DNA from: Patescibacteria group bacterium
Lineage (GTDB): Bacteria > Patescibacteriota > UBA1384 > CAJBMM01
Assembly (NCBI GenBank): GCA_041660565.1
Contig: JBAZWC010000001.1
Coordinates: 430,481 to 494,480, forward strand
Direction of reading: 5' to 3'
DNA length: 64,000 bases
Shown here: positions 1-64,000 of the stretch, piece by piece
Numbering within the stretch: the stretch's first letter is position 1
Layout: the number at the start of each line of letters is the position of its first letter
Notes under the pieces: model-generated
Told to the model about the DNA's origin: nothing
The model's input: only the letters and a program-made list of their open reading frames with translations
Database searches by the model: none
Made by a program: the position numbers and the translations under genes

Positions 1-2
1 AT

Positions 3-131
3 GCCGGCACCGGTAGTTATGCAATTCAAGTTACTATTGGAGTAATCTTTGGCGCCGGGTACGCTCTACGTTCGTTTGGCGGGCGTTTTGTCACCAAAAT
101 TAAGCACTATCTGCGTAAAAACAAAGACTAA
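3..131 (+). CDS. 3' end of an upstream gene (partial, likely membrane protein)
   Basis: Frame 3 is open from the window edge to TAA at 129-131. The translation is hydrophobic and Gly/Ala-rich (..VIFGAGYALRSFGG..). Confidence 0.3.
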   Translation, partial: AGTGSYAIQVTIGVIFGAGYALRSFGGRFVTKIKHYLRKNKD

Positions 132-136
132 ACACC

Positions 137-1894
137 GTGAATCTCAAAATGATGGATAATTTTTCCAAGCTCAAATTTAAGAAAAATTTGTACTATTTTT
201 GGTATTGCTTGATTTTGTTTGCGATTTCTTCTTTTCCGTTAATTTCAAACTGGCTATCTAATCGATATCAGGTAACCGCAGCTGATTTGGTTCTGCCGAT
301 TATTTTGAATTCAATAACCGCGCTGGTGGTTGGTGCAATTTTCTGGCGCCAATACAAACAAAACAACTTAATTGGGGTGCTAACAGGCGGATTTACCATT
401 TTGTTCTTGACGCACCAATTTGCTAATCGATTAAATGCGGCTGGCACATTAATCAAAACAATCACCCCGTTTGCTAGTTATTCCACTGGTGTTTCGTTTT
501 TTCAGTACCTGTTTTTTCTGATACTGGTAATTGCAATCATCATGTATTTCTCGCACCGCCTCATTGCATACTTCCGCAACCAAAAATGGGAATTGGTAAT
601 ATGGTATCGTTCCGTAATAATTACCGTAATTACCATCTTTATTGTTCAATCCATGTTGGTCATTAAAATTGTCATTGCAGAATGGGCGCAATTTAGCTAT
701 CGCCCACCAACCCTTTCGGCAAATTTAAATACGACAAATAAACCAGATATTTATTACATCGTTCTAGACAGATACGCCAATCAAAACGTGCTCAAAACCC
801 AATTCAATTTTGATAACGGGGATTTCTTGAATTATTTGGATAAAAACGGCTTCACAGTAAACAATGACGCGCATAGCAACTATCCTTTTACTACGATGTC
901 TATTTCATCAACGATGAATGCCAACTATCAATCCGATATCGTGCAAAAGTTCGGCGGTGCATCTGAACAAACTTTAGAGCCGTTTCACGATTCAATTAGA
1001 TACAGCTCGGTTATTCAATCGCTCAAAAGTGCGGGATACAAATTTATCCAACTAGGCAGCTGGTATGAAGCCAGTAATCAAGCACCGCTTGCAGATCAGA
1101 ATCACCAACCCGACGGCCAACTTATCATACTAAATCATACTTTTACCCTGAATGATTTTGCCAAAAACCATTTAACTAACTCGTGGATTGGGCAAATTGT
1201 CTCTCGCGGACTAAATATTGGCCATTTTTCTGTACTTGGTTACAGCCAAATTAGCGAAGCAGACGCAACATTATATAAAATCCAACACCTCAAAGATTTT
1301 GCCAGCCAGTCTGCGGGCGGACGAGTAATCTTTGCGCACTTTTTAATCCCCCATGAGCCCTATTTGTTTAACGCCGATGGATCGTATTCCACCAACCCCA
1401 CCAGTGACAGCGTGGGAAAGCCGATCAAAACAAAATATACCGACCAAATTAAATTCATCAATAGTCAGATGAAGACCGTGATCGATCAGATCAATAAATC
1501 AAGTAGCAATCAAGCGATTATTGTTCTGCAAGCAGATGAAGGTGCGTATCCGATGCAAATGAACGGTCAGCTAAACGGGCAAGCGATTGAAGAGGAGTTA
1601 TCGGCAAGTGATATGCGCAACTGGTCGGATGCAGATTTGCAAATGAAATATGGAGTTTTAGCCGCATATCACATTCCAAAAGCTTCTGCGGCCCAAATTC
1701 AAACCAGCGCCGATTCGGTTAATGTGTTTCGGTTAATTTTTAATACCTATTTTGATGCCAAAATGGATTATTTACCCAAATGTTATTATGCTTACCCAAA
1801 CGGGCGCGCACAGTCGTTTGTCTTTGCCGATATTACCAAAAGATTGACAGGTAGTGATAACTCCTCCTGCCCCACCAACAGCAATTTTAAGTAG
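137..1894 (+). CDS. polytopic membrane protein with C-terminal sulfatase/LtaS-like (alkaline-phosphatase superfamily) exodomain
   Basis: 585 aa. The N-terminus is multi-TM. The extracytoplasmic part carries YYIVLDRYAN...NYPFTTMSISS and FAHFLIPHEPY, which resemble the LtaS/sulfatase fold. Confidence 0.5.
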   Translation: MNLKMMDNFSKLKFKKNLYYFWYCLILFAISSFPLISNWLSNRYQVTAADLVLPIILNSITALVVGAIFWRQYKQNNLIGVLTGGFTILFLTHQFANRLNAAGTLIKTITPFASYSTGVSFFQYLFFLILVIAIIMYFSHRLIAYFRNQKWELVIWYRSVIITVITIFIVQSMLVIKIVIAEWAQFSYRPPTLSANLNTTNKPDIYYIVLDRYANQNVLKTQFNFDNGDFLNYLDKNGFTVNNDAHSNYPFTTMSISSTMNANYQSDIVQKFGGASEQTLEPFHDSIRYSSVIQSLKSAGYKFIQLGSWYEASNQAPLADQNHQPDGQLIILNHTFTLNDFAKNHLTNSWIGQIVSRGLNIGHFSVLGYSQISEADATLYKIQHLKDFASQSAGGRVIFAHFLIPHEPYLFNADGSYSTNPTSDSVGKPIKTKYTDQIKFINSQMKTVIDQINKSSSNQAIIVLQADEGAYPMQMNGQLNGQAIEEELSASDMRNWSDADLQMKYGVLAAYHIPKASAAQIQTSADSVNVFRLIFNTYFDAKMDYLPKCYYAYPNGRAQSFVFADITKRLTGSDNSSCPTNSNFK

Positions 1895-1916
1895 AGATTA
1901 TTGTCGATTCTATCTT

Positions 1917-1950
1917 TGTCATTCCGGGCTTGACCCGGAATCTATATAAA
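1917..1950. repeat. GTCATTCC hairpin repeat (tgtcATTCCGGGcttgaCCCGGAATctatataaa)
   Basis: Inverted repeat immediately 3' of the stop codon. Near-identical copies lie at 40572-40608 and, in reverse orientation, at 19515-19546 and 38401-38433. Confidence 0.7.
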
Positions 1951-2005
1951 GAATTAGCTCCGCACTTGGTCTAGCACGGAGCTGTTGGGGGTGACGGGTC
2001 GGCGC
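1943..2005. repeat. 63-bp direct repeat, copy 1 (tatataaagaattAGCTCCGcacttggtctagcaCGGAGCTgttgggggtgacgggtcggcgc)
   Basis: Read directly from the sequence: identical to 3076-3138. Contains the hairpin AGCTCCG/CGGAGCT. Confidence 0.85.
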
Positions 2006-2239
2006 AGCCACCACCATGCTAGTGATGCAGTCGAGTATCCGCCTCTCCTTTTTGCTGCTGACTTATAGCTGGCAGCAGATACAAGATATGTTGACCATAC
2101 AATAGCAAAGATAAATGGTTTTGACACAATGATATTTTGATCAATATGTGTAATTATGATATACTTACGCTGTTTTTCAACGATCGTTCGTTAACATACC
2201 TCTGACACTATCGTACGCCACCCGAAAGGACATACGGAT

Positions 2240-2980
2240 ATGACAGACCAGGTGTTGGACGAGCGTTTTCAGGCAATGAAAACGTTGTTCACGCAGTTGC
2301 CTGAGCTAGTGGAATACCTTGCTCGTAAAGGCAGCATACATTCACAGCAAGTCTGCCAAGCGATCACGGGGAAGCCGGACTATCGGACTGCGCTTGATAA
2401 TGCAGATGACCCATGGATGTTAGCAAGCTTCTTGCGCGTCGAGATGGACACCGAAGTCCTTAGGCTGATCAAGCAATACCTGAACGATCATCCGCAAAAG
2501 TGGCTTCTGGTCTATGCCCGTCCCGCCTGCACAACGGTGCTATGCCCGTACAAGGCAGAGAGCATGTACGCAGTGCTATATCGCAGTCTATCCGAGATGG
2601 TTGACGGTGGAGTTGTCGGTCTCGATGCTACCCAAGTCATCCGATCAATCCTGTGCGATCATGACCAACACGACGCACGACGTTCTTCTTACATGCTTGG
2701 TGCGGCGGCGGTGATCGTCGATCTAACCGAGCAATTGTGCCGTGCCAAGGCAGAACTGGCGGCGCTACGAGACACGCATGACCCAGCGGGTCAGAAACAG
2801 ACCCAATGCATGTTTTGCCCAGACACTGCTGTCTGGGAGCGACATACCCAATTCACTGGCATTCATCCGTTCTGCCAGAAGCATGCTGAGCTCGAATCCG
2901 ACTTCGGTAAGGATGGCGTCGACAACTTCTTCTGGGTGAGGGTTGAGGAGGTTTCCACGGAGGAAACGTGGTCAATCTAG
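2240..2980 (+). CDS. hypothetical protein (GC-rich; C-terminal Cys/His cluster CMFCPD...HPFCQKH)
   Basis: 246-aa ORF of roughly 58% GC in a low-GC genome. It is bounded on both sides by the 63-bp direct repeat. I recognise no fold. Confidence 0.5.
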   Translation: MTDQVLDERFQAMKTLFTQLPELVEYLARKGSIHSQQVCQAITGKPDYRTALDNADDPWMLASFLRVEMDTEVLRLIKQYLNDHPQKWLLVYARPACTTVLCPYKAESMYAVLYRSLSEMVDGGVVGLDATQVIRSILCDHDQHDARRSSYMLGAAAVIVDLTEQLCRAKAELAALRDTHDPAGQKQTQCMFCPDTAVWERHTQFTGIHPFCQKHAELESDFGKDGVDNFFWVRVEEVSTEETWSI

Positions 2981-3075
2981 GTATCGAAAGCAGATGCCAT
3001 GCCCAATAACCCAAGTGCCCATCGGATCGTCGCTTCCGATGGGCTTCGTTTTACGTCAAGAAATAAGTCTGAAAA

Positions 3076-3138
3076 ATATATAAAGAATTAGCTCCGCACT
3101 TGGTCTAGCACGGAGCTGTTGGGGGTGACGGGTCGGCG
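3076..3138. repeat. 63-bp direct repeat, copy 2
   Basis: Perfect copy of 1943-2005, lying 96 bp after the stop of the 2240..2980 gene. Confidence 0.85.
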
Positions 3139-3140
3139 CT

Positions 3141-3380
3141 TCATTGTGTCTTGTCTTCCAGGCAGAAAGGCACGCTGTTGCGCGCGATCTCTTCGTCATC
3201 GAACGGACCGAATTCATTACGATACTTGGGGGCGCGACGACGCACCGGTTTGTTGGCTACATCGTCAGGCACGTCTGGTTTTGGATCGGGTAGCTGCTTC
3301 AGCCGCGCCTTCTCCTTCATACGTGCGAGGCGGTGAACCAACCATGCAGCCACCACCACGCCAATGATGCTGTCAAGCAC
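3141..3380 (-). CDS. small membrane protein (N-terminal TM, basic/Pro-rich tail)
   Basis: 79 aa. Overlaps the upstream small membrane ORF by 8 nt, which suggests translational coupling. GC-rich. Confidence 0.4.
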   Translation of the reverse strand: MLDSIIGVVVAAWLVHRLARMKEKARLKQLPDPKPDVPDDVANKPVRRRAPKYRNEFGPFDDEEIARNSVPFCLEDKTQ

Positions 3381-3603
3381 GTGGATCTCCTTTCCGTCGC
3401 CTGGGCTCCCGGGGTGCTGGAATCCGGCGGGGTCGTTCTCCCGGTTCGTTGGTTGGTTCGCTGAGATAGGTGGTATGGGTCACGCCTCTTTTGATGATCG
3501 AGGTACCTTGTTTCGGCTTCCAAGTCACGAGCCACACACCAATGCCAGTTAGTGCAACAACGAAGGCAATCATGCCCAACGCCACAAACGCAGTCTGAAG
3601 CAT
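3373..3603 (-). CDS. small membrane protein (N-terminal TM, Arg/Pro-rich tail)
   Basis: 76 aa. Sits downstream of the repeated promoter-like box at 3692-3717. Confidence 0.4.
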   Translation of the reverse strand: MLQTAFVALGMIAFVVALTGIGVWLVTWKPKQGTSIIKRGVTHTTYLSEPTNEPGERPRRIPAPREPRRRKGDPRA

Positions 3604-3691
3604 CTCGCGCTCCTTGTCCTATCCGGTACTTATGAAAGTGCACTGCTTCAGCACCAGCTGAGATCTCCCTTCTGCGGAAGTCCTACCGTAG

Positions 3692-3717
3692 ACAGATACT
3701 ATCGTTATATCATATTT
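3692..3717 (-). promoter_or_regulatory. repeated promoter-like box cagatactatcgttatatcatatttt (copy 1)
   Basis: An identical 26-mer recurs at 4354-4379. Both copies lie 40-90 bp upstream of minus-strand genes. On the coding strand it reads aaaatatgatataacgatagtatctg. Confidence 0.45.
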
Positions 3718-3723
3718 TAATCC

Positions 3724-3781
3724 AATAAAGAATCAGCTCCGAGCGGGTGCACGGAGCTGAAAGAACCAGGAGTCGGGCGTC
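3724..3781. repeat. variant of the 63-bp boundary repeat (aataaagaatcAGCTCCGagcgggtgcaCGGAGCTgaaagaaccaggagtcgggcgtc)
   Basis: Same architecture as 1943-2005 (AGCTCCG hairpin followed by a G-rich tail). Lies between two minus-strand genes. Confidence 0.6.
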
Positions 3782-4317
3782 TACCGAGAGGGTTGGTAGT
3801 GTCCGAGCAACCACAGGAAAGCGAACACCTTGTGTTCGACGGGATCGCCCCGGATCACGGCCGTAAAGCGGCGAGCGCCTATCGCGTACTGGTCGAAGAT
3901 GAACTCGGCCGGAATGTCGTCCGGTGTCGGGTGGAGACTGGGGTCGAGTAGGCCCATGAAGTCGGCGGAAACCTCACTGGGGCTGTCAACCGAGATAATC
4001 CACTGGTCCCCGGGTTTCATCACCAGCGTCAGCCCGTCTTTCCGGATAACCTCTACTACCGGCATCATGACGCTACCAGGAATCTCGAATTCGGCAACCA
4101 CGTTCAGGCAACCATTCTCCGCCTGAGCGAACGCATCAAGGCCATTTATCCCCAGGGCATCCGGGACCGCACTCCTGACGAAGTTGAGGCATCTCCAGAA
4201 CTGGCTTCCCAGCCGTTCCAGAACCTCATCCGGCCGATTGGGGCAACTAATGCTGCCTGGAGGGTTGAGTGTCTTCCAGCCATGCAACGATCTACGATCT
4301 ATCTTGGTGCACCGCAT
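3781..4317 (-). CDS. hypothetical protein (GC-rich island)
   Basis: 178-aa ORF with no recognisable motif. Its upstream region carries copy 2 of the 26-mer box. Confidence 0.45.
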   Translation of the reverse strand: MRCTKIDRRSLHGWKTLNPPGSISCPNRPDEVLERLGSQFWRCLNFVRSAVPDALGINGLDAFAQAENGCLNVVAEFEIPGSVMMPVVEVIRKDGLTLVMKPGDQWIISVDSPSEVSADFMGLLDPSLHPTPDDIPAEFIFDQYAIGARRFTAVIRGDPVEHKVFAFLWLLGHYQPSR

Positions 4318-4353
4318 GATCGTATCCTCTCTGTGAAGGTTCTTGTCGTACGT

Positions 4354-4379
4354 CAGATACTATCGTTATATCATATTTT
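4354..4379 (-). promoter_or_regulatory. repeated promoter-like box (copy 2)
   Basis: Identical to 3692-3717. Confidence 0.45.
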
Positions 4380-4457
4380 CATAAAAAAAAGGGTTTGACG
4401 TCTACCTATTTTGTTTTTCGTGAAAAAATGTTAAAATATGAGTTAGGTGATAAATAA

Positions 4458-4534
<77 letters not shown>

Positions 4535-4704
4535 TATCGCACCATCTTGCGAAATCACTCATTTCAGGCACCCATCTTGCGGAATAACACATTTGGATAC
4601 TCGTTTCACTCGCATCCAATTACAGAATGCTCGCTTTGGTCGCATTCTGAGCGCGTTATTCTACGCAAGTGGATGCTCGCTCGGGCGACGATACGCCCTC
4701 GCTC

Positions 4705-4780
4705 GCACCCATAGCTCAACTGGCAGAGCAGCTCCCTCTTAAGGAGAAGGTTACAGGTTCGATTCCTGTTGGGTGCACCA
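4705..4780 (+). tRNA. tRNA-Lys (anticodon CTT)
   Basis: GCACCCATAGCTCAACTGGCAGAGCAG..ctcttaa..GGTTCGATTCC..GGGTGCACCA. Confidence 0.85.
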
Positions 4781-4785
4781 AAAAT

Positions 4786-4810
4786 TCGACGTTTATCGTC
4801 GTTTTTTTAA
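4786..4810 (+). terminator. intrinsic terminator after tRNA-Lys
   Basis: CGACG-tttat-CGTCG followed by a T7 run. Confidence 0.6.
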
Positions 4811-4916
4811 TCCCTAAAAAATCCCTTGTTATCCATCGTTTTCCATGAGACAAAAATATTTGACTTTAGACCAGATAAATATTAGCTTAAAGGTATAGTA
4901 ACAAAGAAAGGAAACT

Positions 4917-6065
4917 ATGAAATTTCGCATATTTGTGGTGGCGTTATTCTTGTCCGGATTTATGGCAATCCCAGCCTACGCAGCGGATTTAAAAGCACCT
5001 GAGAGCCCATCCACCAACGTAACCGTTGGCACAGACACGGTTTGGAATAACTTATATGTCGCCGGCTCTAACGTGACTGTTGACGCTCCGGTTTTGAAAG
5101 ATTTGGTTGCAGCTGGCGGCAACGTAACGGTCAATGACCCGGTTGCGCACAGCGTTTTGATCGCTGGTGGCACGGTCTCACTAAAATCAGATGTAGGCCA
5201 GAACGTGCGCGTAATGGGTGGCACGGTTGATATTACCGGCAGCATTGGCGAGGATTTGTTGGTTGCCGGAGGCACCGTTACCATAGATTCAAACACCGTA
5301 GTTAAAGGTGATCTACTAGTAGCCGGTGGCACAGTAACCGTTAACGGTAAGGTTGATGGCACACTCAGAGCAACTGGCGGCGATATCATCATCAACGGAC
5401 AAGTAGGTAAAGACGTTATTGCTAAACAAATCAGCACCCTCGAGCTGGGAAGCACATCAGTTATCGGCGGCAAACTGTCCTATTCATCACCTGTTGAAGC
5501 CACTATTGCCACCACCGCGCGAGTCGTTGGCGGCGTTGATTATCAAAAAATTAGTTACCACAACAACGGCGTGGGTGATTCTTTGGCCGGTTTGTTAGTG
5601 TTTAGCGCCCTAATGAAGGCGTTGGCGTGGCTGGTAATGGCTTTGATTTTAGTTTACGGATTTGCCCGCTCTACCGCACACGTTGTCGAACAAAACAAAA
5701 CCAAATTTGGCTTATCACTAGGCATTGGTTTTATCGCAATTATTGTTGTTCCAGTATCCATCGTCTTATTCACGGTTTCACTAATTGGCTCAAGCTTGGC
5801 CGCTGTTTTAGGATTATTGTTCATTCTTGCTTTAATTCTTTCGGGGGCATTTGCGGCAATCTGGATTGGATCAGAGATCGTACGATTAATATCAAAGTCT
5901 AAAACTGCCCGCCTTGACTGGCTATCGGCACTAATTGGCGTGATTGCATTAATGGTTTTGGGCGTCATTCCGGTGTTGGGTTGGCTTGCTTGCGGTGTAA
6001 TATTCCTATCAACCTTTGGTGTATTAGTACGAATATTATGGTCTCATTTTCCACAAAAGGCCTAA
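4917..6065 (+). CDS. secreted/membrane protein with beta-helical (bactofilin-like AGG-x-V-x-V) repeats and C-terminal TM segments
   Basis: Signal peptide, reiterated VAGGNVTV/VAGGTVTI motifs, three or more C-terminal TM helices. RBS aaaggaaa. Confidence 0.5.
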   Translation: MKFRIFVVALFLSGFMAIPAYAADLKAPESPSTNVTVGTDTVWNNLYVAGSNVTVDAPVLKDLVAAGGNVTVNDPVAHSVLIAGGTVSLKSDVGQNVRVMGGTVDITGSIGEDLLVAGGTVTIDSNTVVKGDLLVAGGTVTVNGKVDGTLRATGGDIIINGQVGKDVIAKQISTLELGSTSVIGGKLSYSSPVEATIATTARVVGGVDYQKISYHNNGVGDSLAGLLVFSALMKALAWLVMALILVYGFARSTAHVVEQNKTKFGLSLGIGFIAIIVVPVSIVLFTVSLIGSSLAAVLGLLFILALILSGAFAAIWIGSEIVRLISKSKTARLDWLSALIGVIALMVLGVIPVLGWLACGVIFLSTFGVLVRILWSHFPQKA

Positions 6066-6234
6066 CTAGCAACACATTTATAGCTCTGGTTATATTAACG
6101 TATTAACATGTAATCAGGGCAATACTGTTATCAATTAAATAAATATTCGACCTCCCAATCGGTCAAATATATCCAATTTATCCAATTGGAAGATACCATT
6201 AGTTTGAGATTAACTTACGGTTGTGCGCCGACTT

Positions 6235-6852
6235 TTATGAATGCACAATAAATCCGCGAATGATTGGAGAATTTAATAGAATCTTTCGCTTAGATACCCA
6301 TCCGGAAAAATAGTTACGCTCAATTACTTCAATAGTATTACCGTTAATCGAGGTAACCACCGCTGCGTGGCCGGGACGACTCTCGGTTGTAATCAAAACC
6401 GCACCATCTTCCGGAATATTTGAGTTCGGTTTATTCGAGATTGCAGCACCGGAAATGTTGATACCACTAACCGCTCTGGCAAATGGAACACATTGACCGG
6501 ATTCGGGGTACAATTTTACCGCATCAGTTACTGCTAGAATTAGAGAATTGATTTTTTTCGATGCCAAAGCTTTAGCTCTTGCTTCAGCCTGTCTTTTATT
6601 TACAATAGTTTGGTTTGAGTCACCCACAGTAATGGTAAGCGTTTTGGCGACACAAATAGCACCAGCAGATTTCGTTGAAATATTAATTTCACATTCTGGG
6701 TTTGAAGATGGGATATTCTCTGACTGTGCGTGAATTGCGGGCGGTGTTTGAAAAGGTAATGTGCTAATGGCAATTGCCAGTAGCCACCGCGCGGCTTTTG
6801 ACGTACAAATACAAAACTCCTTGTTATACGGAAGAAGAAAGTTAAGCCCCAC
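6235..6852 (-). CDS. secreted CHAP-domain peptidoglycan hydrolase-like protein
   Basis: C-terminal Cys...His arrangement (GQCVPFAR...GHAAVVTS..IEVIERNY) typical of CHAP amidase/peptidase. N-terminal signal sequence. Confidence 0.5.
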   Translation of the reverse strand: MGLNFLLPYNKEFCICTSKAARWLLAIAISTLPFQTPPAIHAQSENIPSSNPECEINISTKSAGAICVAKTLTITVGDSNQTIVNKRQAEARAKALASKKINSLILAVTDAVKLYPESGQCVPFARAVSGINISGAAISNKPNSNIPEDGAVLITTESRPGHAAVVTSINGNTIEVIERNYFSGWVSKRKILLNSPIIRGFIVHS

Positions 6853-7054
6853 TCACTTTGTTCTTATCAGTAAGCACAAAAAAAGTATGACATAATCATA
6901 CTTCTACTCATTTCTTACCGACCTATACATTCTACAGCACAGCGCAATAAATGTCAACCCCTTTATGAAAAAATCAGGCGATAATCGGCTCAAGATTATC
7001 TAAGTAACTTAAGTATCTTAGGTTACTTAATGTGCCCGCGAGATAGTTGTCAAA

Positions 7055-8005
7055 ATGGCTATCAATCTTTATAATGAGTTAGGAGAAAAAGTGGAAAATA
7101 TCATTACAGTCAAAAATTTGAAGAAAGCTTATGGATCGCTAAAAGCGGTTGATAATATCTCATTTGAGGTCAAAAAAGGTGAAATATTCGGTTTATTAGG
7201 CGAAAACGGCGCCGGCAAAACCACTACTTTAGAAATGATTGAGGGTTTACGAAAGCCCACCAGTGGAGAAATTAAGGTACTAAATTTTGACATTCGCCAC
7301 GATTTATCCAAGATCAAACACATTATCGGTGTCCAGCTTCAGTCTTCGGCCTATTTTGGCTTCCTTACACTGGTTGAAATATTAGATTTATTCGGCAGTT
7401 TTTACCAAAAAACCGTTAATCCGATGGAGTTGTTAGAGCTTGTAGATCTTAAAGACAAGGCAAAATCATACATCAATAACCTATCTGGCGGGCAACGTCA
7501 GCGATTTTCGATTGTGGCAAGCCTGGTAAATGACCCGCAAATTGTCTTTTTAGACGAGCCAACGACCGGCCTAGACCCAATTGCCAGACGTAATTTATGG
7601 GATTTAATCATTAAAATTAAGGCGCAAGGCAAAACTATTGTGTTAACTACCCATTATATGGAAGAGGCCGAAATTTTGTGTGATCGTATTGGCATTATGG
7701 ATTCGGGCAAAATTGTAGCGCTTGATAAAACCCACAATTTGATTGAAAAAGTAAAACATCCCTACAAAATCCACTTCATTACCCCAAACCTATCTCAAAA
7801 ATCGTTTGATGCTCTCAATAAAATTGGCATTTTAGAAGAACTGGCGGGAAAATCGCACCATTATGAGCTCAGATTACACACGAAACACGATCTAAACGAC
7901 TCTTTGTCACTAGTGCAAAAAACCGACCCCGAAAGTCTGTCTGTCGGCCGCGCCAGCTTAGAAGACGTGTTTATTGAACTTACCGGAAAAACATTGAAAG
8001 ATTAA
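7055..8005 (+). CDS. ABC transporter ATP-binding protein (ABC-2 type)
   Basis: Walker A GENGAGKTT, signature LSGGQRQR, Walker B VFLDEPT. Confidence 0.85.
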   Translation: MAINLYNELGEKVENIITVKNLKKAYGSLKAVDNISFEVKKGEIFGLLGENGAGKTTTLEMIEGLRKPTSGEIKVLNFDIRHDLSKIKHIIGVQLQSSAYFGFLTLVEILDLFGSFYQKTVNPMELLELVDLKDKAKSYINNLSGGQRQRFSIVASLVNDPQIVFLDEPTTGLDPIARRNLWDLIIKIKAQGKTIVLTTHYMEEAEILCDRIGIMDSGKIVALDKTHNLIEKVKHPYKIHFITPNLSQKSFDALNKIGILEELAGKSHHYELRLHTKHDLNDSLSLVQKTDPESLSVGRASLEDVFIELTGKTLKD

Positions 8006-8006
8006 G

Positions 8007-9089
8007 ATGATAAAACTATTTATTGCCGATATTAAATTACTTTTCCGAAACAAACAACAATTGTTTTGGTCACTAATGTTTCCGCTCATTTTCACCGTAA
8101 TATTTGGCTTTTTCTTCGGAAGCGACACCACTTCCGCCGGTACGGTAGCATTAATTAACAATGCCAATACTCCGGTAGCATCATCGCTTGAATCTGTCAT
8201 GAACAGCGCCAAAGTATTCAAGGTACAAAAAGAAACCAACATAGATGATGCCAAAAAATTGCTAAAAAACAGCAAAGTGGTGGCGGTGGTGGTAATCCCA
8301 GCCGATTTTGGGGCGCAATCGGTATCCGCTTCAAAAAATCTACAACTAATTTCCGATCCCGGCAATGCGCAGTCAAATTCGATTGTAAGCGGATTTTTGA
8401 ATCAGTTCCTAACTACCCTCAATTTTCAATCGCAAGGAATCAAACCGATCTATGGCATTGATCAACAAAACACCAGCACCAATACATTTAATTACTTCGA
8501 CTTTGTGCTGGTTGGATTGATTGGAATGGCATTAATGAACAGCTCGGTTCAGGGCGTGGCAATTTCGATGGCGCAATACAGAGACGATCAAATTTTGAAG
8601 CGAGTTACGACCACCCCGTTGCCATCGTGGAAATTTATTATCGCTCAGGTATTATCACGCTTAATTGTGAACGTTATCCAAGTTGGCTTAATTTTGGGAA
8701 TCGGCGTCTACGCTTTCAACGGGCACATTTACGGCAATTTGGGTATGATTTTTGCACTAGCGATGCTTGGTGGGATTTTATTCCAGCTGCTCGGGTTCAC
8801 CGTGGCAAGCTTAACTAAAACCACTCAAGCGGCAGAAGGCATGGCCACCGCGGTTACTATTCCAATGATGTTTTTAGCCGGTGTCTTTTTTCCGATCGAT
8901 TCATTACCAAAATGGCTAAACAGCATTGTGCAGTATCTACCGTTAGCACCGTTATTAAGAATGATCCGAACGGCAGGTTTAGAAGCGGTTTCACCATTCG
9001 AAAATCCGATCAATATAGTGATTGTCTGTGGTTGGATTGTTATCCTATTGGCTATTTCATCTCTCAAATTCAAAATGAACCCGGAATAA
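8007..9089 (+). CDS. ABC-2 family transporter permease
   Basis: Starts 2 nt after the ATPase stop. Six predicted TM helices with a large first external loop. Confidence 0.75.
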   Translation: MIKLFIADIKLLFRNKQQLFWSLMFPLIFTVIFGFFFGSDTTSAGTVALINNANTPVASSLESVMNSAKVFKVQKETNIDDAKKLLKNSKVVAVVVIPADFGAQSVSASKNLQLISDPGNAQSNSIVSGFLNQFLTTLNFQSQGIKPIYGIDQQNTSTNTFNYFDFVLVGLIGMALMNSSVQGVAISMAQYRDDQILKRVTTTPLPSWKFIIAQVLSRLIVNVIQVGLILGIGVYAFNGHIYGNLGMIFALAMLGGILFQLLGFTVASLTKTTQAAEGMATAVTIPMMFLAGVFFPIDSLPKWLNSIVQYLPLAPLLRMIRTAGLEAVSPFENPINIVIVCGWIVILLAISSLKFKMNPE

Positions 9090-14909: not shown

Positions 14910-14924
14910 GAAAGGGAGACGACC

Positions 14925-55908: not shown

Positions 55909-56090
55909 CACAATTTTAAATTTTAAAGGCAAAATTTTAAATGAATAAGTACCGAATGATTAAATTTTAAATGGTTCCTTATTAAGTCATTAAAAATTGG
56001 CAACCATTCATTTGATAATCTCGAGCGTTCCGCGAGTGATTTCGATGCTAAGCATCTAATTAAAAATTAATAATTTATAATTCTTTTTTT

Positions 56091-56137
56091 GCAGATTTCT
56101 CCACCCTCGACTTGAATATCGAGGAGTCGAAATGACA
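56091..56137. repeat. GTCATTTCGAC subfamily repeat (reverse orientation)
   Basis: cagatttctccaccctcgacttgaatatcgaggagtcgaaatgac. Confidence 0.6.
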
Positions 56138-56166
56138 ACTTGTGACGTATACCTTGAACCAACGTT

Positions 56167-57303: not shown

Positions 57304-57379
57304 ATGGCTGGGGAGGAGGGACTCGAACCCCCGAATGCCAGGACCAAAACCTGGTGCCTTACCACTTGGCGACTCCCCA
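57304..57379 (-). tRNA. tRNA-Gln (anticodon TTG)
   Basis: The reverse complement reads TGGGGAGTCGCCAAGTGGTAAGGCACCAGGttttggtCCTGGCATTCGGGGGTTCGAGTCCCTCCTCCCCAGCCA. Confidence 0.8.
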
Positions 57380-57437
57380 ATTAGTTATATCCTACCACAA
57401 AATCATATTCTAAGCAATCATAATCGGCAATTATTTA

Positions 57438-57465
57438 TTGCAAATTGTCTCTTTTCTGATAGAAT
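57438..57465 (+). promoter_or_regulatory. promoter TTGCAA-16-TAGAAT, copy 1 of a duplicated about 45-bp promoter module
   Basis: ttgcaaattgtctcttttctgatagaataatgacatcaca. A near-identical copy lies at 57743-57785. Confidence 0.6.
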
Positions 57466-57495
57466 AATGACATCACATGTACGGAGGCACGACGA

Positions 57496-57690
57496 ATGCC
57501 AGGTCAAACCGGTCTTACCTTCGACGAGCTTGTGCACGCGCTGATTTCCGCTTCCATTGCACTCGGCAAGATGGAAAAGCAACACCAGATTCGCCATACC
57601 CCACCCGACGAGACGGAACGTTTGCTCGCGCCACTTCGTTCTCGAGTAGAAGAGATCCGAAACGAAATCGTGTGCGCACATTATGCGTGA
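57496..57690 (+). CDS. small helical protein, paralog 1 (64 aa, GC-rich)
   Basis: MPGQTGLTFDELVHALISASIALGKMEKQH.. Its own promoter and terminator are duplicated around the next gene. Confidence 0.5.
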   Translation: MPGQTGLTFDELVHALISASIALGKMEKQHQIRHTPPDETERLLAPLRSRVEEIRNEIVCAHYA

Positions 57691-57709
57691 ACCGGACATC
57701 ATCATGCCA

Positions 57710-57741
57710 CGCCGCGGGTCAAGACAGACCGCGGCTTTTTT
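57710..57741 (+). terminator. intrinsic terminator, copy 1
   Basis: GCCGCGGgtcaagacagaCCGCGGC plus T7. Confidence 0.7.
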
Positions 57742-57742
57742 T

Positions 57743-57771
57743 GTTGCAAATTGTCTATTTTCTGATACAAT
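57743..57771 (+). promoter_or_regulatory. promoter TTGCAA-17-TACAAT, copy 2
   Basis: ttgcaaattgtctattttctgatacaataatggcatcaca. Confidence 0.6.
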
Positions 57772-57801
57772 AATGGCATCACAGCGACACAGAGGTGTGC
57801 C

Positions 57802-57996
57802 ATGAACGTAACACGGATGAGTGCAGCTCAGTTGGTGGACAGCCTCATCGACAAGACGGCTGAGCTCACAGAACTACGCCACGACAAGGACGTAACTTCA
57901 GTGGCAGCTAGGAATGCTCAGGACATTTGCACAGCCGAGCGAGACCAGTGCCGCGCTGAGATTCTCCGGCGGCTTGGAGCCAAGAAAGCCGAGTAG
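57802..57996 (+). CDS. small helical protein, paralog 2 (64 aa, GC-rich)
   Basis: MNVTRMSAAQLVDSLIDKTAELTELRHDKD.. The L-V-x-[AS]-L-I register is shared with paralog 1. Confidence 0.5.
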   Translation: MNVTRMSAAQLVDSLIDKTAELTELRHDKDVTSVAARNAQDICTAERDQCRAEILRRLGAKKAE

Positions 57997-58030
57997 CCCG
58001 CCATCCCCACCACCTCACCCTCCCCACCAC

Positions 58031-58065
58031 GCCGCGGGTCAAGACCGACCGCGGCTATTTATTTT
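58031..58065 (+). terminator. intrinsic terminator, copy 2
   Basis: GCCGCGGgtcaagaccgaCCGCGGC followed by tatttatttt. Confidence 0.65.
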
Positions 58066-58687: not shown

Positions 58688-60217
58688 CTATCGTAATGTA
58701 AAATGTTTATCCACAATCAACGGTTTGTCTTGATTATACGGAATGTTTAATTGCAGAGCCAGCTCGGCTTTAATTAACTCTAGCGTTATATCCACATAAT
58801 GATCACCGCGCGACAGTAAATTACGTTTGGCTAAACGTAGCGCAATTTCACGCGCTTTTGTGCCAATTTCTTCGGCAATTTCGGTACCTGACAAACTAAT
58901 TAGCTTTAAGATGATTTTGCCACCATCAACCTGTATTCGCACAATTCCACGTGGATCTAAATCTGCAGACTCATCAAATTGCGCTTTCACCCGCCCGCGC
59001 AACGCACAATCCACCAACTTTTTGGCATTCTCCCAATCTTCTTCGTACATATGCGCGGAGTGCGAGGTGATGGCCAAAGATCCAATTGGCAAATTAGTCT
59101 CTTCGGCAACGTATTTTTGTAAATTTAGCAGCGCAAAAGCGTTGGGTAACGCCGCCTTAAAGATATCATGTGATCTGAATGTGGCGATTAAGTTTAGTTT
59201 ACCTTCAACGGTCGTCAAAAACTGAATCAAGCACAAACACGGTGGTGAGTGATGTTTCATATCAAACGGCGGGTACAACGTGGTGCCAAAAGCGCGGCGA
59301 GTGATAGGTGATGATTTTAGATGACGTACAATCTCATCAACTTGATCTAAATCACCCGGGTAATTGCGCAAACGGCTCCCATAGGTGTACACCGTGCCCT
59401 CGGGCAGCTTTGCATCCAAAAACGCCGTGGCGTATTCTTTAAGCATATCTTTGTGCATCCCAACTGCTTTCAACAGCTCCTCCGGCCAATCCGGAATAGC
59501 AAACTTGGCTAAATCTTCTTGATGAATCACCCAAGTAACCACCTGCAACTCTTTCTGCAAATTGCCATATTCGGTTTTTTTGATGCCACCGTAAAGCAAA
59601 ATGCGATCAACCACCTGCGCCCATGCGCCAGCCAGAGTAGGATGATGCACTGCAAACCCAATTTCTTCCGATGGCGCCGAGGCGTCAACATCGCGCTTGG
59701 TTTCGGGAAAAGAAGTGGGCTTCATATATGGCTTAGTGTCTGAGGTTAGATTTTTCACTTTGGAGATCATTTTGTCGTAGTCTAGGTCAGATAAATCGAG
59801 CAATTTAACATTTTGGCGCACTTTTTCTAACACGTCCGGATCAATTTCAGGATGCAGCCTGTCTGATGTTCCGTTTACTAGGTTATCTTTGCCTATGCTA
59901 CTATCGAAAAAAGTTTTGAGTAAATTGCGGCCGGCAATGCCAAATTGAGTGTTTGATAGTGGCGCGTTGCCCCAAACCACCATCGTTTTAATGGTTGGAT
60001 TCAAGCACAAATTACGCAAAATCACCGAAACGCCTTCTTTGCTGTAAAGCGTACCCATCAGCCCAATGTGCTTGGTAATGGTCGGATCTTTTTTGAGCAG
60101 CAAATTTGGGTCGGACCAACACGTTGCCAAACCAACCGAGGCGTTTTCACCGGTCACCACCGGATATTTTTCAGGTAAATAAAGTTGGTATTTCATTAAA
60201 TCCCTTGTTCGAATCAA
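58688..60217 (-). CDS. thymidylate-synthase-fold protein (ThyA-like C-terminal domain) with an about 250-aa N-terminal extension
   Basis: The C-terminal half aligns with the ThyA core: SPPCLCLIQF....GKLNLIATFRSHDIF...PNAFALLNLQKYVAE...SLAITSHSAHMYE. The N-terminal half has no recognisable motif. Lies in an operon with tmk. Confidence 0.6.
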   Translation of the reverse strand: MIRTRDLMKYQLYLPEKYPVVTGENASVGLATCWSDPNLLLKKDPTITKHIGLMGTLYSKEGVSVILRNLCLNPTIKTMVVWGNAPLSNTQFGIAGRNLLKTFFDSSIGKDNLVNGTSDRLHPEIDPDVLEKVRQNVKLLDLSDLDYDKMISKVKNLTSDTKPYMKPTSFPETKRDVDASAPSEEIGFAVHHPTLAGAWAQVVDRILLYGGIKKTEYGNLQKELQVVTWVIHQEDLAKFAIPDWPEELLKAVGMHKDMLKEYATAFLDAKLPEGTVYTYGSRLRNYPGDLDQVDEIVRHLKSSPITRRAFGTTLYPPFDMKHHSPPCLCLIQFLTTVEGKLNLIATFRSHDIFKAALPNAFALLNLQKYVAEETNLPIGSLAITSHSAHMYEEDWENAKKLVDCALRGRVKAQFDESADLDPRGIVRIQVDGGKIILKLISLSGTEIAEEIGTKAREIALRLAKRNLLSRGDHYVDITLELIKAELALQLNIPYNQDKPLIVDKHFTLR

Positions 60218-61011: not shown

Positions 61012-61350
61012 TCACGCCTCGCAAGTCGCGTCAGAAGCAGCCTTGGTCTCCGTCTTGAGCAATGCCAAACACATCTTTGTGAACTCGTCACGGATGTCCG
61101 CAGGCATATTCCACGGTCTATCACCGAGCGTCTTGAGCACGCTCGAGACATACTCGGCCGCGAACTTGCGCATCTCGTCGAAAGACATAGCCAGCACCGC
61201 TAGGAGCTGCATGTCGGCGACGAAAGATCCCCATACCTCACCCCATTCCACGGCATTAGAAGGAGTGAGAGCCGGAATGATCGCGAAGTAAATGTTGATC
61301 TTTGCCGTCAGCTTAACCTTGATCGAAGCCACGTCCATCATAGTGTCCAT
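61012..61350 (-). CDS. hypothetical protein (GC-rich)
   Basis: 112-aa ORF of roughly 55% GC. Confidence 0.35.
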   Translation of the reverse strand: MDTMMDVASIKVKLTAKINIYFAIIPALTPSNAVEWGEVWGSFVADMQLLAVLAMSFDEMRKFAAEYVSSVLKTLGDRPWNMPADIRDEFTKMCLALLKTETKAASDATCEA

Positions 61351-61503
61351 TTCGTGCTCCTATAGCCTACCATTCGGCTGCGGCCGAGTACGTGTGTCAA
61401 AGGACTCAACGACTTGTCCTGCCGTGATACCACTATATTATCATATATTTTAATAAATGTCAAGGTAGATATGGACAAATTAAAGATGTTATGCTATAAT
61501 ATA

Positions 61504-61998
61504 GTAGTCTAAATCTTTTCGGATCATCGCCCCTAACGGGGAGGAAAGTCCGGGCACCTGATAAGCGTTGTACTGACGCATCTGCTAGCATTAGTTAGCA
61601 GCGAAGTCTAGCTGCCCCGTCATTCGACAGGGCAAGGGAATAGTGCAACAGAAAATACACAGCCAGCCAATGCGTTGCATTGGAAATTCGAAATTCTAAA
61701 TTCCAATTTATAAACATAAGGAAATTTGTTTATAGGCTGGATTCCCGCCTGCGCGGGAATGACGCCTCGAGTTTCTAGTGCAGCGCGTCGGGGGCAAAGG
61801 TGAAAACGTGTGGTAAGAGCGCACGCGCTTTAGCAGCAATGCTAATTTGTGAAAACCCTGCATGGTGCAAGTCTGGTGGACCATTCGCTTCAATTGTGCT
61901 TATCCAAGAAGCGGGTTTGGCCCAGACGCGTAGATAGATGATGGTCAAGTATTTGTTTACAAATACTACAGAACCCGGCTTATAGAAACGGTTTAGAC
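61504..61998 (+). ncRNA. rnpB: RNase P RNA (bacterial type A) with an enlarged P12 region
   Basis: Promoter -10 TATAAT at 61494-61499. P4 5' strand GGAGGAAAGTCCGGGC (61539-61554). AGTGCAACAGAAA. GGTAAGAGCGCAC (61815-61827). P4 3' strand ACAGAACCCGGCTTA (61965-61979). P1 pairing GTCTAAA/TTTAGAC. Terminator AATGACGCtgttAGCGTCATT plus T-run at 62001-62030. Confidence 0.85.
61739..61763. repeat. GTCATTCC-family hairpin inside the rnpB P12 expansion
   Basis: ggATTCCCGCctgcGCGGGAATgac, preceded by an about 55-nt AT-rich insert (aaattcgaaattctaaattccaatttataaacataaggaaatttgtttatag). Confidence 0.7.
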
Positions 61999-62020
61999 AT
62001 AAAAAATGACGCTGTTAGCG

Positions 62021-62338
62021 TCATTTTTTGTCATTTTTATTTAGATCAATTACTAATGAAACATGAGATGAGGGCGGATTTTGAGATAACGATCGATTTT
62101 CTTCTATTGAATCAAAAACTATTTTCGCATCATTTTCAGCAGATTCGGTGATGCTTTTCATCTCTTCTTCGCTTAAATTGTATTCAGATGGATCAAAATC
62201 TTGGTCGTCTTCTACCATCGTTTCTAACTCACGTACTCGTTTTTGCAACCGATCAAGCTGATTTTCCAACAGATCTATCCGGGCGTTAACGGTAGCAAAT
62301 TTTTTTTCAATTTTAGCAATAATTTGTTCTTGGTCCAT
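62021..62338 (-). CDS. hypothetical acidic coiled-coil protein
   Basis: 105-aa ORF with heptad-like repeats at the N-terminus. Confidence 0.4.
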   Translation of the reverse strand: MDQEQIIAKIEKKFATVNARIDLLENQLDRLQKRVRELETMVEDDQDFDPSEYNLSEEEMKSITESAENDAKIVFDSIEENRSLSQNPPSSHVSLVIDLNKNDKK

Positions 62339-62415
62339 TGTTACTCCTATGTAATTATCAGGATAAACTAGCCGGTGATTTTGTCAACCAAATTTCCCCA
62401 ATTGGGCAAATTGGA

Positions 62416-64000
62416 TTAATTTGATTTTAGAACATTTTTCAGATACTGCCCTGTCGATGATTTTTCCACCTTAGCCACTTCTTCCGGTGTACCCGAAGCA
62501 ATTAGCAATCCTCCAGCTACACCGCCCTCTGGGCCTAGATCAATAACATAATCAGCCGATTTAATTACGTCTAAATTATGCTCAATCACTAGTACTGAAT
62601 TTCCTTTATCAACTAAAGCCTGCAACACACTAATTAGATGTTTAACATCTTCAAAGTGCAAACCGGTGGTTGGTTCGTCTAGAATATAAAATGTTTTGCC
62701 GGTACCACGACGCGACAGCTCGGTGGCTAATTTGACTCGCTGAGCTTCTCCACCCGACAAAGTGGTCGCGGGCTGGCCAAGGTGAATGTAGCCCAACCCA
62801 ACATCAAACAACGTTTGTAGTTTGGTTTTGGCGGCTGGCACGGCGTCAAAAAACTCTAACGCTTGCTCAACCGTCATATCTAGCACTTCCGAAATGTTTT
62901 TGCCCTTATATTTGATCTCTAGCGCCTCGTGGTTGTAACGTTTACCGTGACATTCTTCACATGTTACATAGACATCGGGCAAGAAATGCATTTCAATTTT
63001 CAGCACTCCATCGCCATGACAAGTTTCGCATCGCCCACCTTTAACATTGAATGAGAATCTGCCCGCTTTGTATCCGCGCATTCGGGCGTCTGAGGTAAGC
63101 GAAAACAAATCGCGAATAAAGGTGAATAAACCGGTGTAAGTGGCGGGATTTGAGCGTGGTGTGCGACCGATTGGTGATTGATCAATAGTAATAACTTTAT
63201 CAAGATAAGATAGACCCAAAATCTCTTTGTGCTTGCCCGGATTTGTGCGAGCGTGATGGAATTTCTGTTCCAAAGTTTTGGCCAGAATATCGTTAATTAA
63301 AGTGGATTTTCCTGATCCGGAAACACCGCTGACACAAACAAACACGCCTAGTGGAATTTTAACGTCAATATTTTGCAGATTGTTCTGGGTAGCGCCCACA
63401 ATGGTTAGCGCACGATCAGTAATTTCTCGACGTAATTTTGGCGTCGCAATCTCTTTTTTACCAGATAGGTATTGCCCGGTAACCGAGTTTTCGTTCTTTT
63501 TGACCTCGGTTGGTGTACCAATGGCTACCACATTTCCACCATTTTCTCCCGCACCAGGGCCAATATCGATTAAGAAATCTGCTTGTTCCATTGTTTCTTG
63601 ATCGTGCTCAACCACAATAACCGAGTTACCTAGATCACGTAGTTTCTTTAGCGCATCTAATAGTTTGGCGTTGTCGCGTTGATGCAGGCCGATTGACGGT
63701 TCATCCAAAATATACAAAACCCCCATCAACGACGAGCCAATTTGGGTGGCTAAACGAATACGTTGCGCTTCTCCGCCCGACAACGTGGTGGCAGAACGAT
63801 CTAAGTTTAGATAAGCCAAACCGACGTTTTGCAAAAAATTCAAGCGCGATTTAGCTTCTTTCACAATTTGCTTGGCGATAACCGTGTTGCGGTCTGTTAG
63901 TTTAAGATTAGATACAAAATCATGAGCTTCATCTATGGATAAACTGGTTACTTCGGCAATCGATTTTTGATTAATCTTGACCGCCAGTGCCTCTGGTTTT
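62416..64000 (-). CDS. uvrA: excinuclease ABC subunit A (C-terminal roughly 60%; gene continues past the window end)
   Basis: Two ABC ATPase modules with LSGGEAQR signatures and a zinc-finger CxxC pair. UvrA-specific insertion domains. The open frame continues beyond 63864 to the window edge. Confidence 0.9.

Follow-up and report, generated by a model that had tools for sequence, protein, structure and literature searches.

GC-rich units on the promoter side of stable-RNA genes in a patescibacterial genome window

In a 64,000-nucleotide stretch of one Patescibacteria metagenome-assembled genome (assembly GCA_041660565.1, contig JBAZWC010000001.1, positions 430,481 to 494,480 of the forward strand; hereafter, the window), compact GC-rich units adjoin every tRNA locus as well as the RNase P RNA gene, and at all but one of these stable-RNA loci the GC-rich DNA lies on the promoter side. 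We consider it probable that this DNA consists of autonomous, non-native units and is not a set of islands inserted by an integrase. The explanation we favor, capture of heterogeneous foreign cassettes in the spacers of stable-RNA genes independently of an integrase, is more tentative (we place it at roughly 0.4), and the specific recombination route by which capture would occur is doubtful.

The genomes of Patescibacteria are tiny, the organisms presumably depend on other cells, and how they gain genes is poorly understood. The window suggests a route that requires neither integrase nor transposase, in which self-expressing cassettes of foreign composition would settle next to stable-RNA genes, specifically on the promoter side. 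Were this true genome-wide and in relatives, it would offer a simple guide to where the accessory genome lies, along with a set of family-less structured-RNA and small-protein candidates for roles in host interaction. It also carries a caution: GC-rich DNA beside a tRNA gene does not equate to insertion by an integrase, and its side, bracketing repeats, and donor similarity should be checked each time.

GC-rich units beside stable-RNA genes

The window has a GC content of 45.7% and carries 13 tRNA genes in eight loci, as found with ARAGORN and Rfam; the class A RNase P RNA gene (61511-61998, plus strand; Rfam) forms a ninth stable-RNA locus. When the window is split into 64 genes and units, their GC content is bimodal: 42 of them, taken as native, have 34-49% GC, and the 22 that are GC-rich have 54-62%. 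A sequence-only reading of this DNA had described GC-rich blocks beside every tRNA locus, and all the blocks it named are present at the coordinates it gave. A GC-rich unit adjoins each of the eight tRNA loci, always on one side and never on both (P = 0.006 if loci were placed at random in the gaps between units), and the RNase P RNA gene adjoins one as well.

The association is directional. Scoring a flank as GC-rich when the 700 bp next to a stable-RNA locus include a 300-bp stretch with no less than 55-56% GC (null frequency ~0.25), we found the upstream flank to be GC-rich at eight of the nine loci, namely seven of the eight tRNA loci and RNase P (binomial P ~1e-4). The downstream flank is GC-rich at one of nine, which is the background level (P = 0.92), and upstream GC exceeds downstream GC in 8/9 (two-sided P = 0.04). 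A cruder test that pools both flanks gives a weaker signal (P ~0.03-0.04). The tie to tRNA genes is thus non-random but not exclusive, as GC-rich units also occur away from them: a GGDEF-domain gene (37547-38284, plus strand; 56.8% GC) adjoins no tRNA gene, and the same applies to a pair of units at 45.0-45.9 kb and to most of the DNA at 14-18 kb. In other contigs that we fetched, a small and taxonomically mixed sample of ten tRNA loci, no GC enrichment of tRNA flanks was seen.

Along the window, the first locus, tRNA-Arg(tcg) and tRNA-Lys(ctt) (4458-4780, plus strand), is preceded by the hyp178 unit (3727-4391, minus strand), which is divergent from tRNA-Arg and includes a promoter box at 4354-4391, a coding sequence at 4317-3781 (58.3% GC; GC at third codon positions, GC3, 0.71; period-3 z = 10.7), and a hairpin terminator at ~3727-3760. 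Farther out lie the two-gene hyp76-hyp79 unit (3077-3603, minus strand; 56% GC) and the hyp246 open reading frame (ORF; 2240-2980, plus strand; 53.7% GC, GC3 0.61, period-3 z = 9.7), which matches no family. The hyp79b unit (12605-12895, plus strand; 56.7% GC), which ends in a hairpin and T-run terminator, stands directly 5' of tRNA-Glu(ttc) (12938-13011, plus strand), with the hyp163 ORF (11960-12451, minus strand; 55.9% GC) before it. The minus-strand cluster of tRNA-His(gtg), tRNA-Arg(tct), and tRNA-Gly(ccc) (30614-31132) has the hyp150 ORF on its 5' side (31259-31711, minus strand; 54.5% GC). In the minus-strand cluster of tRNA-Gly(tcc) and tRNA-Pro(tgg) (34061-34310), the hyp85 unit (34435-34760, minus strand; 57.8% GC) lies 5' of tRNA-Pro; its promoter-like element reads TTGATT-17-TATTGT, and it ends in a hairpin terminator.

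The minus-strand pair of tRNA-Arg(cct) and tRNA-Pro(cgg) (42282-42531) is adjoined by the sec455 unit (42619-44270, minus strand), which comprises a predicted promoter at 44270-44242, a 210-nt leader, a coding sequence at 44030-42663 (55.9% GC), and a 12-bp terminator at 42646-42619. Two units, hyp64a (57431-57736) and hyp64b (57737-58056), both on the plus strand, follow one another beside tRNA-Gln(ttg) (57305-57379, minus strand), and the hyp112 ORF (61012-61350, minus strand; 54% GC, GC3 0.70, period-3 z = 13.6) is directly 5' of the RNase P RNA gene. The remaining two tRNA loci adjoin units without a coding body: ncE (19050-19348, minus strand; 61% GC, non-coding part 19050-19318) beside tRNA-Thr(cgt) (18891-18966, plus strand), and ncC (26030-26690, plus strand; 58% GC, body 26065-26660), followed by ncD (26705-27880, plus strand; 62% GC with a peak of 68%, body 26738-27880), beside tRNA-Asp(gtc) (25693-25769, minus strand). 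The pair at 45.0-45.9 kb, ncA (44980-45432, plus strand; 56% GC, body 45012-45432) and ncB (45460-45897, plus strand; 55% GC, body 45492-45897), is likewise non-coding. Finally, a shikimate-dehydrogenase-like gene (55% GC) and the hyp84 unit (58% GC), which has its own TTGACA promoter near 17853, occupy 16801-18177 on the plus strand.

Bodies, promoters, and terminators

Most GC-rich ORFs are codon-periodic, with period-3 z values of 2.5-27 against 10-18 in native genes, and therefore count as genuine genes. The exceptions are very short: hyp76 and the 64-amino-acid ORFs of hyp64a and hyp64b, all three with z values of ~2 or less. All of ncA, ncB, ncC, ncD, and ncE fall below 1, like the RNase P RNA, which bears out the earlier remark that much of the payload is non-coding or made of small ORFs. 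Recoding of a stop codon was considered as an explanation for these five and rejected, as reading through any single stop opens no frame. We compared their predicted fold energies with those of dinucleotide shuffles, with terminators removed. The resulting z-scores are -3.9 for the body of ncA (-5.8 for the full unit), -3.8 for ncB, -5.6 for ncC, -5.6 and -4.4 for the two halves of ncD, and -6.5 for ncE, as compared to -5.5 for the RNase P RNA, +0.5 to -2.4 for GC-rich coding DNA, and -0.4 to +0.7 for native coding DNA. None of the five matched Rfam 15, which includes GOLLD, ROOL, OLE, HEARO, 6S, SRP, and group I/II introns, at the gathering threshold or at E <=5, and a separate rescan of ncA-ncD against Rfam with lax filters and E <=10 returned no match either. 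Judged by these folding models, the five are credible candidates for new structured RNAs without a family in Rfam. Within ncE, at 19205-19270 on the minus strand, an AGGAGG ribosome-binding site is followed by a 13-codon mini-ORF, MKVLVTPATPLVT, and then by strong hairpins; the layout resembles that of a leader peptide, but no gene lies downstream on the same strand.

From consensus scans and direct reading of the sequence, the GC-rich blocks appear to be strings of compact units, each with a predicted AT-rich promoter of the sigma-70 type, a GC-rich body, and a predicted terminator made of a hairpin and a T-run. The putative ncB promoter, TTGACA-17-TATATT at 45460-45488, agrees with the consensus at 11 of 12 positions; that of ncA is TTGACA-17-TATATA, and a double terminator is predicted at the other end of the unit. 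Similar predictions hold for ncC (TTGACT-17-CATAAT at 26030-26058) and ncD (TTGACA-16-TATAAT at 26705-26732, with a terminator at ~27855-27880), while in ncE a promoter read by eye (TTGACA-17-TATTTT at ~19348-19320) is paired with a bidirectional terminator in common with tRNA-Thr. The hyp64a and hyp64b promoters have TG-extended -10 boxes (57438-57465 and 57744-57771). Terminators with 12-bp stems occur at 45371-45398, 45834-45862, and, as mentioned, at the end of sec455, and the top three terminator-like sites within 40-59 kb each close a GC-rich unit.

Neighboring units often have flanks in common but not bodies. In hyp64a, the 64-amino-acid ORF occupies 57496-57690 and the terminator is CCACGCCGCGGGTCAAGACAGACCGCGG; hyp64b has a promoter 89% identical to that of hyp64a (z = 20.7 versus shuffles) and a terminator ~97% identical, whereas the body DNA aligns at only z = 1.8 and BLASTP finds no alignment between the two proteins. 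The ncA and ncB units likewise combine homologous promoters and terminators with unrelated bodies, and for the tandem pairs overall the body alignments are put at z ~0. In the 1.9-4.4 kb block, the promoter box occurs twice, at 4354 and, 89% identical, as the AT-rich box of hyp76/79 (3693-3730, minus strand), and AGCTCCG..CGGAGCT terminators are repeated. One of these, the hairpin terminator of hyp76-hyp79 (3077-3139), recurs with 100% identity in a truncated mosaic duplicate of the hyp79 unit (1943-2051, minus strand), next to a second copied piece that matches the 5' end of the unit (3346-3393) at 77% identity. Unrelated bodies between near-identical flanks point to recombination rather than to slow divergence. 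The ncC and ncD units have a 5' 20-mer in common, GGCGTTGATCTTGAACAACT, for which no match was found in IMG/VR or in any locus that we fetched.

A family of repeats resembling miniature inverted-repeat transposable elements (MITEs) or repetitive extragenic palindromes is also dispersed through the window. Its members span 30-300 bp with ends of the form TGTCATTYC...GRAATGACA, for which there are 21 matches where ~8 are expected, and they are located at 1917, 19511, 25846-26021, 27925-28075, 30160-30239, 34325, 38395-38444, 40572, 47045, 55843-56138, and 61735. Most are intergenic and several border GC-rich units, and the window showed no sign of a transposase. We rejected these repeats as the boundaries of cassettes, since they occur at 5 of 12 cluster borders but also in other intergenic regions.

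Composition, donor searches, and tRNA-end copies

The GC-rich DNA had been called foreign-looking, and its composition agrees. The GC3 of the GC-rich ORFs is 0.53-0.79, compared to ~0.40 in native genes. In tetranucleotide profiles, normalized for composition and matched for sample size, native DNA correlates with itself at r = 0.42 and with GC-rich DNA at r = 0.26, and the GC-rich pool correlates within itself at 0.27; the pool is hence both non-native and internally heterogeneous in signature, which makes a single donor unlikely. The encoded proteins are short (median 150 amino acids, against 271 for native proteins) and more often without a Pfam family (13/17 versus 13/42; P = 0.003), and NCBIfam, PHROGs, and PADLOC added no family to the GC-rich proteins. 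The idea of a defense island was dropped, as PADLOC gave no matches.

The proposed source, a high-GC host or its phages, is not borne out. A tblastn search with eleven small GC-rich proteins drew a blank in both 50,697 phage genomes and 72,556 plasmids, and the 2.1-kb non-coding block, sec455, and hyp246 had no match among phage genomes or in IMG/VR. The phage collection holds many actinobacteriophages, and the GC3 of 0.53-0.71 is well below what would be expected of high-GC Actinobacteria. The nearest kin of the window's NUDIX and NAMPT genes, moreover, are patescibacterial. All the small GC-rich ORFs are singletons at 90% identity, but NAMPT is as well, and in a lineage without close relatives this status is no sign of orphanhood. 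The 455-amino-acid sec455 protein, with a signal peptide seen by eye and an Ig-like C-terminus, was ruled out as an orphan by an exhaustive HMMER search: its distant relatives, at up to 35% identity, include proteins named 'HAF family extracellular repeat' in their source, to which its N-terminal region is related, and proteins in which the Ig-like C-terminal domain recurs in many copies. AlphaFold2 models made without alignments had a mean predicted local distance difference test score of 45 for hyp178 and 39 for hyp246, too low for either to be used in a fold search.

The NAD-salvage operon at 13161-16313 (plus strand), the single block that could be annotated and whose ancestry could be traced, is a different matter. 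Its genes encode NrtR (Pfam NrtR_WHD, 6e-21), a NUDIX protein (8e-13), and NAMPT (NAPRTase/NAMPT_N, 1e-58 and 1e-31), so that the NrtR regulator adjoins NUDIX and NAMPT as in an NrtR-regulated NAD-salvage operon, and the operon is one gene removed from tRNA-Glu. NrtR has a native composition (39.5% GC, GC3 0.30), while NUDIX has 54.9% and NAMPT 60.3% GC (GC3 0.79). The NAMPT homologs that carry an organism name (65-67% identity) are mostly from Kaiser-, Yonath-, Campbell-, and Parcubacteria, and the closest homologs reach 71%. The NrtR-NUDIX-NAMPT order is kept in five Patescibacteria contigs, one of them from Kaiserbacteria, and the GC3 of NAMPT is 0.67-0.85 in 5/5 relatives, even where its neighbors have 40-45% GC (contigs L005 and L093). 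A GC-rich NAMPT in all five relatives is an outcome that the sequence-only reading had itself named as refuting its view, and for this block the notion of a foreign island fails: by sequence comparison, it is not host-derived DNA integrated at tRNA-Glu. Either the operon is typical of the lineage and its GC bias extends to the whole family, or a module rich in GC circulates within Patescibacteria. Contigs L005 (6348-11389) and L093 (8219-11407) are themselves GC mosaics, with NUDIX/NAMPT at 49-63% GC next to PnuC, AAA_28, or DNA-polymerase genes at 40-43%.

Classical tRNA integration leaves the inserted element on the 3' side, between the tRNA gene and a displaced copy of the 3' part of that gene. 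The sequence-only reading had taken the window as a case of repeated integration of this kind, and here the evidence goes against it: the blocks are 5' at seven of the eight tRNA loci, no repeat brackets them, and when ~65 ORFs from across the window were scanned with Pfam, domains of integrases, recombinases, or transposases were absent. The partial tRNA copies that it had reported are real for Glu, Thr, and Gly(tcc), yet in a search with tRNA ends plus 40-nt flanks, within 6 kb, no tRNA-derived repeat enclosed a GC-rich block, and all the enclosed segments span 34-95 bp and are mostly AT-rich. The tRNA-Glu copy comprises 19 nt of the 3' end (13109-13127), 95 bp downstream of the gene, and that of tRNA-Gly(tcc) lies 39 bp downstream. 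tRNA-Thr has both a 42-bp tandem repeat (18959-19042) that starts with the last 8 nt of the gene and a 22-nt copy of its 5' end (18789-18810), 71 bp upstream, whose enclosed 71-nt insert is GC-rich. These scars suggest att-type or duplication events in the lineage.

The intact tRNA-Gly(tcc) (34134-34061) lies between two halves of a broken tRNA-Gly gene (33991-34190, minus strand). Its 5' half, GCGGGTGTAGCTCAATGGTAGAGCGCGAG (34190-34162), and its 3' half (34022-33997), which has a degenerate T-loop, possess complementary acceptor arms, and from their sequence it looks as if a 140-bp segment with a whole tRNA gene sits inside a former tRNA-Gly gene. A weak Rfam match to YrlA (E = 1.4) at 34168-34265 partly overlaps the 5' half.

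Origin of the units and comparison with known systems

The integrase hypothesis, in its fullest form, holds that the blocks are remnants of islands or prophages inserted into tRNA genes, with an actinobacterium or another high-GC host, or its phages, as the source, and that integrase genes and most of the cargo have since been deleted. It accommodates the non-random association with tRNA genes and the non-native composition, and the tRNA-end copies at Glu, Thr, and Gly(tcc), together with one at a tRNA-Pro in a relative, make att-type events in the lineage probable. However, those copies never enclose kilobase-scale GC-rich DNA, the 3' flanks where islands should lie have background GC, and the absence of any recombinase domain in the ~65 ORFs scanned or of anything similar among phages, plasmids, PHROGs, and IMG/VR, the modest GC3, and the patescibacterial kinship of NUDIX-NAMPT all speak against it, and we regard it as highly unlikely. 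An assembly or binning artefact, in which conserved tRNA k-mers would have spliced high-GC DNA into the contig, hardly deserves credence. tRNA genes are the sequences most often common to different organisms, and Logan contigs do break at tRNA genes and repeats. Nevertheless, Logan assemblies of run SRR18595301 cover 1976-3139, 4718-18839, 28039-29755, ~42.5-47.1 kb, and ~57.35-61.76 kb of the window, the second and third of these aligned at 100% identity and the other three placed by gene order. One contig from this single run, 14,122 bp long and 100% identical, spans tRNA-Glu, its 5' unit, and the whole NAD block, and others cross the sec455-YgjP-ncA/B-AI-2E and hyp64a/b-Tmk junctions. Independent assemblies thus reproduce the junctions of native and GC-rich DNA, so the window is not an assembly chimera; in addition, native sequence resumes at either end of each block, and the GC-rich bodies lie between AT-rich promoters and terminators that recur in native DNA.

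The main rival explanation is that nothing was acquired at all, and that the units are native, vertically inherited genes and RNAs specific to the lineage, GC-rich through RNA structure or for gene-specific reasons, with a location that would reflect the few shared operon boundaries of a compact genome or shared regulation and processing. NAMPT and NUDIX, GC3-rich in all five relatives regardless of flank composition and conserved in gene order, provide a precedent; the promoters and terminators look native and are locally shared, and the non-coding bodies fold as well as a bona fide structured RNA. GC-rich DNA also lies 5' of a tRNA gene in two other contigs (L001 and L004). On the other hand, a GC3 that is 0.15-0.35 off the native value in as many as 13 small ORFs with no relation to each other does not lend itself to separate explanations for each gene, the tetranucleotide signature deviates from native DNA, and the RNase P RNA of this genome has only 47% GC, so a functional RNA here need not be GC-rich. 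The unrelated bodies between near-identical flanks imply recombination, and the ten tRNA loci in other contigs lack the enrichment. We therefore consider a native origin rather unlikely.

Capture without an integrase, the explanation that we prefer, would proceed as follows. About 20 self-contained, moron-like units would occupy, almost exclusively, the promoter-side spacers of stable-RNA genes, with bodies of four kinds: family-less small proteins, a secreted HAF-related protein, a GGDEF protein, and at least five non-coding folding RNAs. Being non-native and mutually different, the bodies probably derive from several donors of ~52-60% GC. The DNA may have been taken up by natural transformation, without an integrase; its fixation would then have relied on homologous recombination or on the homology-facilitated illegitimate kind. 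Possible anchors are the tRNA genes, as the most conserved sequence common to any donor, along with the shared promoter and terminator modules and the dispersed MITE-like repeats. Once captured, units would have been duplicated or swapped locally, leaving tandem neighbors with the same flanks and unrelated bodies. As for the 5' bias, we can speculate that conflicts between replication and transcription at busy stable-RNA promoters break the DNA there or, alternatively, that the promoter-side spacer alone tolerates insertions. Natural competence has been demonstrated in Patescibacteria, in cultivated Saccharibacteria (PMC10633639), and the window encodes a pilin-like protein; no mobility genes were found in it.

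Several points weigh against this explanation. The analysis covered 64 kb, out of a contig of at least 516 kb, in a single metagenome-assembled genome, the promoters and terminators are known as consensus matches alone, and remote homology of the small ORFs was covered by Pfam, NCBIfam, PHROGs, PADLOC, phages, and plasmids only. The preference for the 5' side is left unexplained, and the tRNA genes (~75 bp) and shared modules (30-50 bp) are shorter than the anchors that reportedly support homology-facilitated illegitimate recombination in experiments. The persistent GC-richness of NAMPT in Patescibacteria means that deviant GC by itself is no proof of recent transfer. Furthermore, close relatives were not found in genome or metagenome collections, so no block can be demonstrated as an insertion or as variable between strains. 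Among 185,579 species genomes (GTDB), the closest relative is a single 5.5-kb contig (L001) with a MacB-type permease at 60% amino acid identity, and in JGI metagenomes the top match to the fructose-bisphosphate aldolase has 45%.

That relative contig has some features of its own to add. A partial copy of a tRNA-Pro 3' end (3468-3489) lies ~130 bp downstream of the gene; directly 5' of the same tRNA-Pro, a GC-rich segment of ~100 nt sits between inverted repeats (3675-3850); and 1.2 kb away, at 4861-5397, there is a 178-amino-acid ORF of 55% GC with its own terminator. Together, they hint that the pattern is lineage-wide.

Compared with integron cassette arrays and clusters of attC sites lacking integron integrases (CALINs), the units are similar in being small tandem cassettes of deviant composition, many of them unannotatable, with a conserved element between them. 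They differ in that each has its own predicted promoter and that what separates the bodies is not an attC site but a plain terminator, whose hairpin is short and perfect and has a T-run, and then the -35 and -10 boxes of a promoter; no extended imperfect hairpin or core site of the attC type was seen when these elements were read by eye, with no formal attC model run, and Pfam scans of the window ORFs did not find intI. GOLLD and ROOL are large structured RNAs that reportedly cluster with tRNA genes (Weinberg et al. 2009 and 2017), and the candidates described here, non-coding, 0.4-1.1 kb long, and beside tRNA genes with their own predicted promoters and terminators, are comparable; unlike GOLLD and ROOL, they have no Rfam match and no homologs were found, and neighboring bodies are mutually unrelated. 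A bolder proposal would make the stable-RNA genes of this lineage the landing sites of an integrase-free cassette platform, with a reusable promoter/terminator 'socket' upstream of tRNA and RNase P genes into which GC-rich bodies are swapped, and with a cargo that includes undescribed structured RNAs of 0.26-1.1 kb, linked to tRNA genes as GOLLD and ROOL are and possibly serving an epibiotic role; this strikes us as unlikely.

In every aspect of their structure but location, the units resemble phage morons, which carry a promoter and a terminator of their own and deviate from their surroundings in GC content (PMC3594210). Like the morons of HK97/HK022-type phages (PMC3594210), the units are single genes or small sets with a sigma-70-type promoter and a factor-independent terminator, both predicted here, a distinct composition (54-62% versus 34-49% GC), and no mobility gene. 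Morons, however, sit between phage genes, whereas these units are chromosomal, several of them non-coding, and placed beside stable-RNA genes; their neighbors are tRNA and housekeeping genes, and no phage genes were seen in the window. Minimal mobile elements, as summarized in PMC3787668 (after Saunders & Snyder 2002), are found in naturally competent Neisseria; the content between their flanks varies, the flanks themselves are conserved, and exchange is through homologous recombination. Unrelated bodies inside short, near-identical flanks are the product to be expected of such recombination. Minimal mobile elements, too, are deviant cassettes without integrase or transposase, for which exchange via transformation has been proposed, but they are defined by variability between strains at a fixed locus and flanked by whole genes, whereas the units here are known from one genome and would have tRNA genes and promoter/terminator modules of 30-50 nt as flanks.

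With tRNA-targeted islands and prophages, the window shares deviant DNA next to tRNA genes and small tRNA-end duplications; it differs in the 5' side, the lack of bracketing and of a detectable integrase, and a scale of hundreds of base pairs versus tens of kilobases, and searches of phages, plasmids, PHROGs, PADLOC, and IMG/VR revealed no cargo related to phages, plasmids, or integrative and conjugative elements. Deviant DNA beside tRNA genes is in itself already familiar. What sets this window apart from textbook islands is the promoter-side location at all but one stable-RNA locus, the absence of any integrase hallmark, the recurring 'socket' with swapped bodies, and the five candidate structured RNAs.

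The proteins of the window carry the locus tags WC773_021xx to 024xx in public collections. Its other genes fit a reduced genome and include a glycolysis/pentose-phosphate operon, RNase Y, YmdB, LytR, the pilin-like protein, and ABC transporters. A 509-amino-acid protein (58688-60217) that adjoins thymidylate kinase is an unusual fusion of a thymidylate-synthase-like domain and a C-terminal PterinBD-DUF4346. An AT-rich repeat, TAATTTGAAATTTGAAATTTTTAATTTGAAATG, occurs at 20566-20598, 23612-23739, 47099-47131, 55911-56015, and 61677-61709, reaches ~100 nt in two inverted copies that are 88% identical, and lies mostly just upstream of operon starts, for example those of RpiB and GAPDH, where it may act as a promoter used in common or as an UP-like element. 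The RNase P RNA gene is 488 nt long, compared to 367 nt for the model, and carries an insertion of ~115 nt at 61671-61785, in a peripheral helix at model position 136/137; this insertion is composed of an AT-rich dispersed repeat and a MITE-like hairpin, GGATTCCCGCCTGCGCGGGAATGAC.

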